The notes beneath the pieces are model-generated. The model did no database searches. It saw nothing but the letters and a program-made list of their open reading frames with translations, and was not told where the DNA came from. From IMG/VR virus record IMGVR_UViG_3300006467_000431: a DNA stretch of 64,000 nucleotides; one strand, 5' to 3'. The stretch is from an uncultured virus (IMG/VR IMGVR_UViG_3300006467_000431) (Duplodnaviria > Heunggongvirae > Uroviricota > Caudoviricetes). This document shows positions 2,761 through 7,468 of the stretch, piece by piece. A program made the translations under genes and the position numbers. The first letter of the stretch is position 1, and the number at the start of each line of letters is the position of its first letter.

Positions 2761-5700
2761 CCTCCATCAGCGATGTGCTGGTGGAGAGCGTTGAAGCTAA
2801 GATACGAGGGCACGTCCTCGGTGTCCCGAAGCACCTCCATCAGCGATGTGCTGGTGGAGAGCGTTGAAGCACCTCCTGCCTCAATGTATGGCGCCGAAAA
2901 GGATGGACCTCCATCAGCGATGTGTTGGTGGAGAGCGTTGAAGCTGGCGACTGATCAGCGCTGTGCAGTAGCTCAACAGGCGTCCTCCATCAGCGATGTG
3001 TTGGTGGAGAGCGTTGAAGCGGGAAGGTGGCCGCGCGGCGTGGTGAAGGTCCCGCTGGCCTCCATCAGCGATGTGTTGGTGGAGAGCGTTGAAGCGGCTA
3101 CCGCCTTCACGGCGGCCTCTTCCTCGTCACGGTCCCTCCATCAGCGATGTGTTGGTGGAGAGCGTTGAAGCGCGTAGCACTCAAGCAGGAAAGTATCGTC
3201 CCTGTGGGTACCTCCACCAGCGACGTGTTGGTGGAGAGCGTTGAAGCCCCTTGTGCACGATGATCAACGAGCTGGCGATGCGGGCCTCCACCAGCGACGT
3301 GTTGGTGGAGAGTGTTGAAGCAACGGGAGGAGTTCGACGCTCACTACCACAAGCGCCTTCACCAGCGACGTGTTGGTGGAGAGCGTTGAAGCACGTCACG
3401 GGCTCGAGGCTCCCATGCGCCCTCGGAGACCTCCACCAGCGACGTGTTGGTGGAGAGCATTGAAGCAAGAACTGCACCCAGAAGACGTGCATGTGCGTGT
3501 GCACACCTCCACCAGCGACGTGTTGGTGGAGAGCGTTGAAGCCCTCTGGGGCTCAACCGCACCTCGCGACCCGATGTGGTCTCCACCAGCGACGTGTTGG
3601 TGGAGAGCGTTGAAGCCTCCTTCAGACGCCTGTGTCGTCCGAAGGCCATGAGGTCCTCCATCAGCGATGTGTTGGTGGAGAGCGTTGAAGCGACTGCGAC
3701 GCGTGCTGCGGAGATCACTACCTTGACCCTCCATCAGCGATGTGTTGGTGGAGAGCGTTGAAGCGGCGCGAGGCGGAGGTTAGCATTCCCGGCCTGGACC
3801 TCTATCAGCGATGTATTGGTGGAGAGCGTTGAAGCTTGGTGGCTCTGGCGGGCGTAGATCATCGTGCCATCTCCTCCATCAGCGATGTGTTGGTGGAGAC
3901 CGTTGAAGCTGCTGCACGGCCTGTGGGCTCCTGTGCGATCAACCCGCGGCCTCCATCAGCGATGTATTGGTGGAGAGCGTTGAAACGAAAACCTCCTGTC
4001 ACGCTTGGACTTCGTACTCTCACCCTCCATCAGCGATGTGTTGGTGGAGAGCGTTGAAGCAATCCGGCCTGGTGGCGGTCGGGCATAGCCACTAGCCCTC
4101 CATCAGCGATGTGTTGGTGGAGAGCGTTGAAGCGGCCTAAAGGGGCGCCGAGCGACTGTCTCAGCCTGGTCCTCCATCAGCGATGTGTTGGTGGAGAGCG
4201 TTGAAGCGGCGTTGGGCGCACACTCGGCCGCCCTCGAGCTCTTACTCCATCAGCGATGTGTTGGTGGAGAGCGTTGAAGCGATAGAGCAGCGTCCCACCA
4301 AACTGACATTTGATACTCCATCAGTGACGTGTTGGTGGAGAGCGTTGAAGCCGACGATGGGCCACCGAGATCTTGAAGGTCGATGATGTCGCCTCCATTG
4401 GTGGAGAGCGTTAAAGCACGGTGCTGGTGCCGACGGGCAACTGGAACACACCTCCATTAGCGACGTGTTGGTGGAGAGCGTTGAAGCCACTCGATGGACC
4501 CTTACACGATGCTTGCGGTCCTCCACCAGCGATGTGTTGGTGGAGAGCGCTGAAGCCAATCACGCCCACGACTTTCTTTCGCCGATCCCGGCACCCTCCA
4601 TCAGCGATGTGTTGGTGGAGAGCGTTGAAGCCCGATGCCCCCCGCCGCCGAGCAGCTCCGCATCGTCAACCTCCATCAGCGATGTGTTGGTGGAGAGCGT
4701 TGAAGCGAACAAGGTGCCACGCCAGGCTGCACGACGCAGTGCCCCTCCATCAGCGATGTGTTGGTGGAGAGCGTTGAAGTTTGCGGCTGTTGCAGCGTCC
4801 GCACAGCACGTCGGAGCCTCCATCGGCTATGTGTTGGTGGAGAGCGTTGAAGCACCAGCAGCGGACCGAAGCGCTTCGCCTCTGCGTGCCGGCGGATATC
4901 GTTGAAGCAACCTTCTGATACTGATGGTCCATCCACCTGGAGCGTTGAAGTGAGTGCTCAGTGGGAGACTTGGTTGACCCGACCGCTGGCCTCCATTGGC
5001 TGTGTGCCTGTGGAGAGCGTTGAATCATGGTCAACCGCACGGTCGGACGAAAGGACCTCCTCTACTGGCTGTGTGCCGGTAGAGAGCATTGAAGCGTACC
5101 CGTCCACTGCGCCGGGATCACTCCCGAGCTGCCCCTCCATTGGCTGTGTGCCGATGGAGAGCGTTGAAGCTACCAAAGCTGGTGCACTGCACGTGTCCGC
5201 TCAGGCCTTCATCGGCTGTGTGCCGGTGGAGAGCGTTGAAGCGGTTGGATTGTACTCGTTGCGGTGGGGGCCCGGATGCTTCCATCCATCGGCGATGTGT
5301 CGGTGGAGAGCGCTGAAGTATGAGTTCTCCTGGGTGCTTTCTCAATCCTCCATCGGCGATGCGGAGAGCGTTGAAGGGTGCGCGAGATACCGGAACTGCT
5401 TGTCCGGATCGAGAACCTCCACTGGCCGTGTTCTAATGGAGAGCGTTGAAGCACGAGGCAGCGCTGGGAATCGAACCCGAGGCCCCTGGTCTCCACTGGC
5501 GGTATGTCAGTGGAGAGCGTTGAAGCGACATCAACAGTCTCTCACCAGAGAGCCAACACTCCTCCACTGGCGGTATGTCAGTGGAGAGCGTTGAAGCTGG
5601 ACCCTGGGCGGATGCGGTCATACTCTAGCTGCTACCGGACGCATCGCCTCCACTGGTGGTACGCTGGTGGAGAGCGTTGGAGTGTTGAATTGCAAGTTCA

Positions 5701-7468
5701 GATCAGCGGCTCCTTTCCTCCACCGGTAGTGCGCCGGTGGAGAGCGCTGAAGCACTCGGACCCGCGGGCACCCCCTGAAGGACCCCTCCTACACCGGCGA
5801 AGTGCTGGTGGATAGCGTTGAAGCGGTCGCACCTGGTTGATGACCATAACGATGATGCCGGTCCTCCACTGGCGGCATGCTGGTGGAGAGCGTTGGAGTG
5901 TGAACACGATGTCGGCACTACAGACGGTACAGAGCTTCCACTTGCGATGTGCCGATGGAGAGCGTTGAAGCAAGTGAGACAGGGAAGCCCGAAGGAGACT
6001 ACGGCGCTGCGACTCCACTTGTGATGTGCTGGTGGAGAGCGTTGAAGGCGCTCGCTGATGTTTCCAGCACACACATCCTCCTCCACTGGCGGCGTGCTGG
6101 TGGAGAGCTTTGAAGCGGGGCATCATCTGCGGTGATCCGCGCCGCCGGAGACACCTCTACTGGTGACGTGCTGATGGAGAGCGTTGTAGTGGCGTTGGCT
6201 GGCCAGTGGCACTGGTCGCCGGCCTCCTCTACTGGCGGTACGCTGGTGGAGAGCGTTGAAGCGCCCCTGCTGCCTGGGACTGCACCGACAAGACCGCGCG
6301 ATATCCATTGGCTGTGTGCCGGTGGAGAGCGTTGAAGTGGCGGCCACTGGAACCAGACCGTGAGCCGCAAGGCTGTCCTCCACTGGCCGTGTGCTGGTGG
6401 AGAGCGTTCAAGGAAGCAACGGACGGATGGACGGACAGTCGGACCCCCAAGTCCCCGATTGCCCTTTCTTTCATCGGTGGCGTGCTGGCTTAGAGCGTTG
6501 AAGCGCGTCGAGGACGGCCTGGATGCGGATATCGTGGTCATATTCCATTGGCCGTGTGCTGATGGAGAGCGTTGAAGGGGTCTACGGCACTGGCTCGCAC
6601 GGATCATGGAAGGGAACCCATCCATCAGCGACGTGCTGGTGGAGAGCGTTGAAGTGCTCCGAGCCGTCCTGTAGCTTGACGAGTGAGCAGATCCACTGGC
6701 AATGCCTTGGTGGATTGGTGGAGAGGGCTGAAGGCAGGGAGCGTTGAAATCAGGTATCGCGGCCCGGAATGCGATAGATAGCGTTGAAGTATAGTATTTT
6801 GAAGTCTTGCTGTTGCAGCAGACCGGTCCAGCGTGAGAGCGTTGAAGGAACTGAGAGCACGGCGCCAACCTTGGATCCGTCCTTGTTGAGCGTCGAGCGT
6901 TGGAGCGGCCCTATTCGCTGACTTGTCAGTGATCGTTGAAGAGGCCACACCGTGCATGTTCCGTAGGACATGGCCAGGGCTCGAGCTCGGGTTATACTTC
7001 CGCCGATCCACCGAGCCGCTGGCTTCGTTGTGTCGGTGGGGTTGCTGTTCAGCCAGAGCCAAGGCAGCAGCATGATCGGGGATGTCTCCATGGGCAGCAC
7101 GCTCGACAGACCCCGCGCATACCGAGGGATTGCTCGAGAATGTTGACTCTCGAGCGTCCATTCGGCATGGTTGAGAGCGTTGAAGGATGATCGACACACC
7201 TGTCGAGAGCCATATGCGTGGTGTGGAGCGTTGAAAGGACCAAAGCAGCAGGGCCAAGCGATCGACCTCTGTGTCGATTGCGCGTTGGAGCTGCCAGGAG
7301 GTTGGCCAGGTGCGTCTGCACCCCAGAATGCCCGATAGAGAGCGTTGAAGGAGAGCAGGTAGACGGTGAGCGAGTCAGAAGTTACTTTGGCTCGACACGT
7401 TGTCGAGAGCGTTGAAGTCAGAAACACTTCGATCAGCAGGATCTTTCTGACATCAAGTGCGTTGAAGG
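2761..7468 (+). CRISPR. CRISPR array, 37-nt repeat CCTCCATCAGCGATGTGTTGGTGGAGAGCGTTGAAGC; ~29 near-consensus repeats (2761-4853), ~26 divergent repeats (to ~6735), ~10 handle-only remnants (to 7468)
   Basis: ~73-nt period with unique ~33-40 nt spacers proximally; 10-bp stem CTCCATCAGC/GTTGGTGGAG followed by the 11-nt tail AGCGTTGAAGC; counts are manual and approximate. Confidence 0.97.

Follow-up and report, generated by a model that had tools for sequence, protein, structure and literature searches.

Diversified repeats with a retained stem and tail in the distal block of a type I-C variant CRISPR array from an uncultured virus

The IMG/VR record IMGVR_UViG_3300006467_000431 of an uncultured virus was analysed over a stretch of 64,000 nt, hereafter the window, which carries a CRISPR array starting at position 2761. 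In the distal block of this array nearly every repeat differs from the others, the 10-bp stem of the repeats stays pairable, and their 11-nt tail is close to fixed at all positions except the last. The block is read here, with slightly better than even confidence, as an old array half that turns over slowly, belongs to a phage-borne type I-C variant (helicase, Cas5d, Cas8c, Cas7) and is under selection for processing. Stem and handle would have been kept by purifying selection via wobble-tolerant drift, and true compensatory evolution would be a minor part at most.

The repeat spans 37 nt and is composed of a C, a 10-nt arm, a 5-nt loop, a second 10-nt arm and an 11-nt tail. The proximal consensus has the arm CTCCATCAGC, the loop GATGT, the arm GTTGGTGGAG and the tail AGCGTTGAAGC, which ends in GTTGAAGC; the two arms form a hairpin with a 10-bp stem and a 5-nt loop, and the tail follows directly. 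The locus was identified as a CRISPR array by its 54 units with a spacing of mostly 66–77 nt and by spacers of mostly 31–40 nt, all of them unique. The 11-mer GAGCGTTGAAG occurs in 41 copies, all on the + strand from 2786 to 7417, with 0.06 copies expected by chance in the whole window. The array and the remnants beyond it are organized as follows, with repeats numbered from the leader side.

2761..4853, + strand: proximal block, r1–r29, nearly uniform; of the 28 full-length repeats, 26 form all 10 stem pairs and two form 9
4872..4951, + strand: junction with the broken repeats r30 and r31; ‘spacers’ of 18 nt and 6 nt, tails still recognisable
4990..6655, + strand: distal block, r32–r54; 22 full-length diversified repeats and the truncated r37 (5341–5377), unique spacers
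6698..7468, + strand: far-distal remnants; 11 tail motifs at an irregular spacing of 16–244 nt, stems lost, shortened or replaced

The distal units are spaced 58–91 nt apart without a double-length gap, indicating that no repeat was missed. Among the 22 full-length repeats there are 21 distinct stem-loop-tail versions, and only r39 and r40 match when the first base is ignored. An earlier sequence-only reading of this DNA had put the number of distal units at about 25, and the count arrived at here is 23. The variant stem arms that it quoted were all recovered, namely those of r33 at 5059 (CTCTACTGGC/GCCGGTAGAG), r34 at 5134, r39 and r40 at 5490 and 5561, and r42 at 5717.

Stem pairing was retained in 205 of the 220 cells of the 22 distal repeats (93.2%). 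It dropped to 37–57% when the 3′ partner was slid by 1–3 columns, and RNAalifold recovered the identical 10-bp helix without prior input. At tail positions 1–10, 9 of 220 cells were changed, whereas the last tail base was changed in 9 of 22 repeats; the tail, previously described as nearly fixed, is therefore so over its first ten positions and not at its end. The stem sites were classed by the effect of a transition from the distal consensus, 12 sites keeping and 8 sites breaking the pair, and the rates of change in the 22 distal repeats were as follows.

Loop: transitions 18.2%, transversions 8.2%
Stem, 12 sites where a transition is tolerated: transitions 16.7%, transversions 2.7%
Stem, 8 sites where a transition breaks pairing: transitions 4.0%, transversions 2.3%
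Tail, 11 sites: transitions 4.5%, transversions 2.9%, with half of the change at the last base

At the pair-breaking stem sites, transitions occurred about 4.5-fold (range 4–5-fold) less often than the corresponding types did in the loop (7/176 versus 20/110, Fisher P = 1 × 10−4), and site-level Mann–Whitney tests on the site classes gave P = 0.009 and 0.011. In the loop, every transition is either G>A or T>C. Precisely these types are scarce at the stem sites where a transition breaks the pair, indicating that a strand-biased mutation spectrum fails as an explanation. Hand counts from the site table gave 17 changed cells of 220 in the stem base (the five outer pairs, columns 2–6 and 22–26), six of them at the outermost base, 45 of 220 in the upper stem and 29 of 110 in the loop. 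The difference between tail positions 1–10 and the loop (9/220 versus 29/110) was significant (Fisher P = 9 × 10−9).

The conserved positions, stem base and 11-nt tail, coincide with the published determinants of Cas5d, which is described as recognizing the stem base and the 3′ overhang and as leaving an 11-nt 5′ tag (Nam 2012 and Garside 2012, as summarized in a section of a review, PMC5965381). The repeats resemble those of canonical type I-C processing, as outlined in that section, in combining a hairpin with an 11-nt single-stranded tail. The proposed match between the handle left by Cas5d and the length of the tail is supported: the tail measures 11 nt, a Cas5d homologue is present and the stem base and tail are conserved.

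The retained pairing exceeded that expected from random placement of mutations. When the transitions and transversions of each repeat were placed at random within the stem, a mean of 191.3 cells remained paired (sd, standard deviation, 3.4), and the observed 205 was reached in 0 of 20000 replicates. The variable stem columns toggle among states that fit either state of the partner, G pairing with both C and U, and U with both G and A. At the 8 ancestral Watson–Crick pairs, 20 G·U cells were found versus 4 A·C cells (binomial P = 0.0015), indicating that pairing is kept in the RNA of the + strand only, which is the strand of the cas genes.

The genes upstream of the array were analysed in the window and in the metagenome contig L076, which is the same contig, deviates from the window by one base in 13,241 nt and adds 3.7 kb upstream.

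L076:675-2909, upstream of the window: helicase gene, 744 aa, matching ResIII/DEAD/Helicase_C only
L076:2789-3577, upstream of the window: Cas5d gene (Pfam 1.1 × 10−14; TIGR01876 89.5 bits, cut-off 85; PDB 3kg4, E = 1.3 × 10−23)
65..1657, + strand: Cas8c/Csd1 gene, 5′ part upstream of the window in L076 (full open reading frame, ORF, L076:3445-5334)
1723..2553, + strand: Cas7/Csd2 gene (Pfam Cas_Cas7, E = 8 × 10−51; TIGR01595 135.5 bits, above the cut-off)
2554..2760, + strand: leader, 207 nt between cas7 and the first repeat, with a T-run near 2641

The gene order is helicase-Cas5d-Cas8c-Cas7-array, and the array follows cas7 directly after the leader, with no adaptation module (cas4-cas1-cas2) adjoining it. 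The Cas5 also matches the solved Cas5d and I-C Cascade structures 8dex and 8g9t and is, by sequence similarity, a clear Cas5d/Cas5c homologue. The Cas8c matches Pfam Cas_Csd1 (E = 4 × 10−22 for the window ORF and 4.5 × 10−27 for the full ORF) and scores 88.8 bits against NCBIfam TIGR01863, below the cut-off of 218.65; since Cas8c and Csd2 both stay below the NCBIfam equivalog or exception cut-offs, they are divergent. The closest database relative of the Cas7 is 82% identical, followed by relatives at 57% and 54%, and the remainder are at ≤43%. Searches of Pfam and NCBIfam with the 744-aa helicase gave no match to a Cas3 or HD family and only generic superfamily 2 helicase families, and the open-ended 215-aa ORF preceding it gave no family match. 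With profiles from 6–7 I-C Cas1, Cas2 and Cas4 proteins, nothing was found at E ≤ 10 in 67.7 kb (the window and the 3.7 kb upstream).

Al-Shayeb et al. (2020, PMC7162821), in the passages on phage CRISPR systems, describe a type I-C variant of huge phages in which Cas1 and Cas2 are lacking, a helicase stands in for Cas3 and the Cas5 resembles Cas5d. The locus is like this variant in that no Cas1 or Cas2 was found, a helicase takes the place of Cas3, the Cas5 is closest to Cas5d and the contig is phage-like; set beside the published loci by description only, it matches the array of that known variant. Those passages make no mention of Cas6 or of repeat heterogeneity within an array, and they describe the phage arrays as compact, with a median of six repeats, in contrast to the 54 or more units found here. 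The three genes of canonical type I-C, cas5d (Cas5c), cas8c (Csd1) and cas7 (Csd2), are all present. Canonical systems also have an HD-domain cas3, cas4-cas1-cas2 and near-identical repeats, and the locus differs from them in each of these respects; cleavage of its repeats is predicted only.

In the favoured reading, the array would be transcribed on the + strand from the cas7-side leader, and Cas5d would bind the base of each hairpin together with the single-stranded 3′ tail and cut at the 3′ foot of the stem. The resulting CRISPR RNAs would each bear a 3′ hairpin and, as 11-nt handle, AGCGUUGAAGC. With no addition or replacement of units, the distal units would persist for long and gather many point mutations and some unit shuffling. 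Selection on the processing and loading of each unit would purge changes in the tail, changes in the stem base and changes that unpair the stem, and the loop and all transitions passing through G·U would remain free. The expected outcome is one ‘neutral network’ occupied by repeats that are not identical, as opposed to successive double substitutions that compensate each other. Cas5d is accordingly predicted to cleave the variant repeats, the block is presumed to be old, and its spacers may still matter to the phage.

Other phage arrays were surveyed with an alignment of 8 Cas7 proteins, which retrieved 42 loci in viral contigs, where Cas7 alone had found no relative. The survey scan was an ungapped Hamming scan and under-counts units with indels; the automatic consensus failed for locus L191 and covered only 21 nt for locus L207, and both arrays were analysed separately. 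In the 8 arrays following Cas4-Cas1-Cas2 (an adjacency confirmed by Pfam for 7 and inferred for L172 from its relative L171), 93–100% of the repeats were identical to the modal repeat, whereas in the 10 arrays not following an adaptation module, including that of the window, 7–96% were (Mann–Whitney P = 0.001). Three records with diverged-repeat arrays, of 221, 437 and 527 kb, are rated complete and have no Cas1 anywhere.

Two of the arrays, L191 and L207, are heterogeneous throughout. L191, a 437-kb viral record with terminal repeats and without Cas1, has two arrays flanking the cas genes (3166–5075 and 12685–14640), with 55 units in 31 versions. In its 52 in-register units, change amounted to 33.5% in the loop, 4.9% at tolerated stem sites, 0.9% at pair-breaking stem sites and 7.5% in the tail, and 463 of 468 stem cells were paired. 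Some 8 types of repeat, distinguished chiefly by their loops, come back in interleaved order with unique spacers, a pattern that ordinary leader-end acquisition cannot produce. The helicase of L191 is a distant relative of that of the window locus (22% identity over 390 aa, pairwise E = 2 × 10−9). L207, a complete viral record of 221 kb without Cas1, has a 46-unit array (2768–6215) directly after cas7; its locus, as read from the near-identical L208, contains Cas3-HD, Cas5d, Cas8c and Cas7. There are 37 distinct hairpin parts among the 46 units, 19 of 460 tail cells are changed, and a hairpin ends at the tail in 41 of 46 units versus a background of 0.45. The commonest variant of L207 has a mid-stem C·A mismatch, the loop length varies, and truncated units as well as tail-only and hairpin-only fragments occur. 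The pair L207 and L208 was considered for a rate comparison and rejected, as the two carry the same array at 99.96% identity (4 mismatches in 9008 nt) and are too close. The 17-unit array of L169 is uniform except for its two final units (10257–10326), which have unrelated hairpins and a perfect 12-nt tail at a shortened spacing of 54–58 nt and so parallel the far-distal units of the window. The arrays of L191, L207 and L169 indicate that the phenomenon is not unique to the window.

The order and relatedness of the distal repeats bear on how their diversity arose. Divergence from a common consensus takes 113 changes and a chain of successive template states takes 157. New repeats are copied from the first repeat in canonical acquisition, and adjacent repeats resemble each other slightly more than they would in a random arrangement (157 changes versus 173.4, sd 7.4, P = 0.02); both facts favour the idea that every repeat of the block preserves the leader-proximal repeat as it stood at the time of spacer acquisition and that the diversity records one evolving template. 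This idea is highly improbable, given the higher cost of the chain, the absence of nested cumulative changes along the array and the failure to find acquisition genes in the 67.7 kb. Furthermore, r54, the oldest unit on this scheme, differs from r1–r2, the newest, at 4 of 37 positions and matches them in 3′ arm and loop type, which would demand many reversals.

The distal block could also have been assembled by recombination or unit shuffling among related phage (or host) arrays with already diverged repeats. The constraint would then record evolution between lineages, each repeat having been functional in its own lineage, and not selection on these old units. Consistent with such a mosaic, the two broken repeats with their 18-nt and 6-nt spacers part the blocks, identical double-mutant loops occur in non-adjacent distal repeats with high homoplasy, and L191 has its interleaved repeat types spread across two arrays. 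The sub-block r7–r12 (3211–3616) points the same way: six consecutive repeats have two T>C changes in common, one located in the 5′ arm and one in the loop, with the same other repeat type on both sides, which looks like block insertion or recombination and not like time-ordered drift. A mosaic origin is nevertheless judged rather unlikely, since 21 versions among 22 repeats would need many donor lineages and the star-like model of 113 changes suffices. Moreover, no array with these repeat variants was found outside this contig in the viral, metagenome and reference-genome collections. A 17-mer of stem and tail gave only 5 single chance matches in viral contigs, and among 125 loci, which include the 120 from a scan of metagenome contigs, more than one copy was present only in this contig (L060, L076, L077). 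A two-tail pattern matched 40 stretches in reference genomes and 1 in viral contigs, none with this repeat and mostly short tandem repeats or unrelated arrays.

Decay was observed within and beyond the array. The hairpin is partly lost in r23, r30, r31 and r37 through internal deletions, with the tails still recognisable; r23 (4381–4417) has lost its loop and keeps a 5-bp mini-hairpin flush with the tail. Three distal spacers are of odd length (21, 49 and 54 nt). The proposal that the distal guides are held under purifying selection instead of decaying is therefore supported in part, by the position-specific constraint on the repeats, and contradicted by the truncated repeats, the odd spacers and the far-distal remnants. 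In the far-distal stretch, exact GAGCGTTGAAG 11-mers are present at 6837, 7175, 7340 and 7407, four units keep the perfect 13-nt tail motif GAGAGCGTTGAAG, and units with deleted or replaced stems are spaced 36–67 nt apart. Unrelated short hairpins flush with the tail are located around 7393–7417, 6905–6941 and 7207–7236. A hairpin flush with the tail was counted in 4 of 11 far-distal units versus a background of 0.093 (P = 0.014). Allowing 1 nt of slack gave 4 of 11 versus 0.19 (P = 0.14), and allowing 3 nt gave 7 of 11 versus 0.33 (P = 0.03). That the tail-only units keep some hairpin flush with the tail is suggestive only. The far-distal tail outlasts the hairpin, and none of the explanations considered here accounts for it.

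Several points weigh against selection on the distal units. Covariation inside the distal block is not significant: when the 3′ letters were shuffled within columns, 92.4% of the cells were paired (sd 0.8), 99 of 500 shuffles attained the observed value and 72 of 500 the covariation score, and 3 cells were changed on both sides versus 2.3 expected. Addition of the 16 distinct proximal repeats made the shuffle test significant (4/500; 15 double-changed cells versus 5.7 expected), but this result rests mostly on pair 9:19 (A-U 16, G-U 11, G-C 9, never A·C), which separates the proximal from the distal block and may reflect a single historical event; the covariation tool itself warns that related sequences can yield such values without any structure. 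A transition-only neutral model gave a mean of 198.1 paired cells (P = 0.043), and the tests treat cells as independent events, which they are not fully. Five G>A changes fall on column 21, and three of them result in a C·A mismatch. Some loops are found again in repeats that do not adjoin each other (TGTGT in r32–r35 and r50, CGTGT in r38, r51 and r53, GGTAC in r41 and r49), and the minimum spanning tree takes 100 changes, far above the no-homoplasy minimum of 40. These recurrences indicate that shuffling or recombination contributes to the diversity, which the favoured reading ascribes in the first place to point mutation at the few sites that tolerate it. Selection is also incomplete, as seen from the four truncated repeats and the decayed far-distal stretch. 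The survey arrays are few and not phylogenetically independent, L171 being related to L172 and L167 to L190. An orthologous array for a rate comparison was not found in the viral, metagenome and reference-genome scans; protospacers, next to which a TTC-type protospacer-adjacent motif would be expected, were not found in the contig itself, a phage collection, a plasmid collection and two exact viral-contig scans. The contig is a fragment, and adaptation genes could sit elsewhere.

The sequence-only reading had ascribed stem preservation to compensatory mutation. The preservation stands, but the changes are mostly one-sided, wobble-tolerated transitions, with double changes at about the expected number; against a neutral expectation, the pairing stands out under random placement and not in the distal shuffle. 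The same figures could be taken to mean that the array is dead, with a transition-rich spectrum and G·U tolerance keeping the pairs and with the tail conservation being an artefact of how the units were found. About 60% of single stem transitions keep pairing (12/20 sites), the column shuffle and the transition-only model give the values above, and truncated units and far-distal debris exist, all of which agree with decay by chance. Such decay is very unlikely in view of the 4.5-fold excess of the same mutation types in the loop over the pair-breaking stem sites, the predominance of G·U over A·C and the like pattern in L191. It also conflicts with the intact 58–91-nt lattice from 4990 to 6655 and the difference between tail and loop changes; as the lattice has no missing unit, ascertainment by the tail cannot explain the conservation of the tail.

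Selection for processing, the reading preferred here, can be set beside published patterns of repeat variation. Compensatory changes between repeat families, with the stem-loop kept and the 3′ end conserved, were reported by Kunin, Sorek and Hugenholtz (2007, PMC1896005), and the distal repeats are alike in both respects; that comparison concerns repeats of different arrays and organisms, whereas the variation in the window lies within one array and proceeds mostly via G·U intermediates. In the CRISPRstrand study of 897 arrays, the part dealing with repeat mutations takes the repeat middle as reference and gives a 16-fold higher rate for the last 4 nt and a 4-fold higher one for the first 8 nt; arrays can carry a few mutated repeats, mostly towards the array ends (PMC4147912). 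The window differs from the pattern given there, since variation is highest in the middle of the repeat, namely its upper stem and loop, and lowest at tail positions 1–10, and only the final base conforms. Heterogeneous phage arrays of this kind were not found described in the open-access literature searched, supplements of the huge-phage paper aside.

The longest identical run shared by two distal repeats has a median of 13 nt and reaches at least 25 nt in 0.9% of pairs; proximal repeats have a median of 23 nt, with at least 25 nt in 34% of pairs. The distal runs fall below the length needed for efficient RecA recombination, which agrees with the recombination resistance suggested by the sequence-only reading and just as well with passive divergence. 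Engineered non-repetitive guide arrays exist that were designed to avoid recombination, and the distal repeats resemble them in being non-identical with short shared runs and differ in that the engineered ones are designed. Since short shared runs follow from divergence, they are no evidence of selection for recombination resistance and may be a by-product of age. The ongoing guide function and the recombination resistance that had been ascribed to the distal block are accordingly put forward here as conjectures.

The leader and the spacers showed further features. A perfect 12-bp hairpin, GACCGAAAGCCA ... TGGCTTTCGGTC, lies at about 2722–2757 in the leader, its end being 4 nt away from the first repeat. 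The leader gave no call of a sigma-70-like site, and a promoter and terminator scan of 2400–8200, with 2 promoter-like sites versus 1.2 expected and 4 terminator-like sites versus 4.0 expected, was uninformative. Spacer 38 (5453–5489) contains GGGAATCGAACCC and resembles the reverse complement of the T-arm and acceptor region of a tRNA; judged from this resemblance, it may derive from a tRNA gene of a host or of a rival phage, and an exact 24-nt scan of the viral contigs returned nothing for it.

A scan of 54 ORFs gave a virion structural protein match (phrog_1383, 1.2 × 10−35) and a match to phrog_2087, with most ORFs lacking a match; no terminase or portal was identified among them, and the contig is incomplete. 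The window also encodes three DNA methyltransferases (21228–22271, 44058–45005 and 51936–53831), a dCTP deaminase (18162–19121) and 2 tRNAs. From the virion structural protein family, the methyltransferases, the dCTP deaminase and the tRNAs, the element is probably a large phage, of which the contig is a fragment. A radical-SAM protein is encoded at 13260–14039, and its presence with the three methyltransferases and the dCTP deaminase in 64 kb would fit a phage that modifies its own DNA. The stretch 7777–8700 just beyond the array contains, on the − strand, an ORF resembling PTH2 peptidyl-tRNA hydrolase (E = 1 × 10−4, just under the Pfam cut-off), a tRNA called by ARAGORN with a four-base anticodon (8190–8267; Rfam tRNA 55 bits) and a tRNA-Ile with anticodon AAT (8576–8651), and further tRNA-like sequence seems to be present in between.

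The classification of the locus is unchanged by these results: it is an array of the known phage I-C variant, and what is new is a feature within an otherwise known kind of system. A bolder interpretation, offered as a speculation and considered unlikely, is that repeat heterogeneity is a general, selected architecture in huge phages without spacer acquisition. The guides would then form a hard-wired inherited set, the repeats would have been driven apart to the limit of Cas5d recognition, which would block the recombinational loss of guides, and the 11-nt handle would be under selection of its own. The separate selection on the handle enters this interpretation because the handle persists where the hairpin is lost or replaced, at 6698–7468 and in the last L169 units.

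With about 100 further repeats in L191 and L207, the 22 of the distal block constitute a natural mutational scan of the Cas5d substrate with respect to the tolerated positions of hairpin and handle. Repeats that are naturally non-repetitive yet processable would be of practical interest for stable multiplex guide arrays. If it is true that arrays without an adjacent adaptation module are heterogeneous and those beside Cas1/2 uniform, the uniformity of repeats in ordinary arrays would be a by-product of turnover, and phage arrays would be long-lived inherited guide sets.

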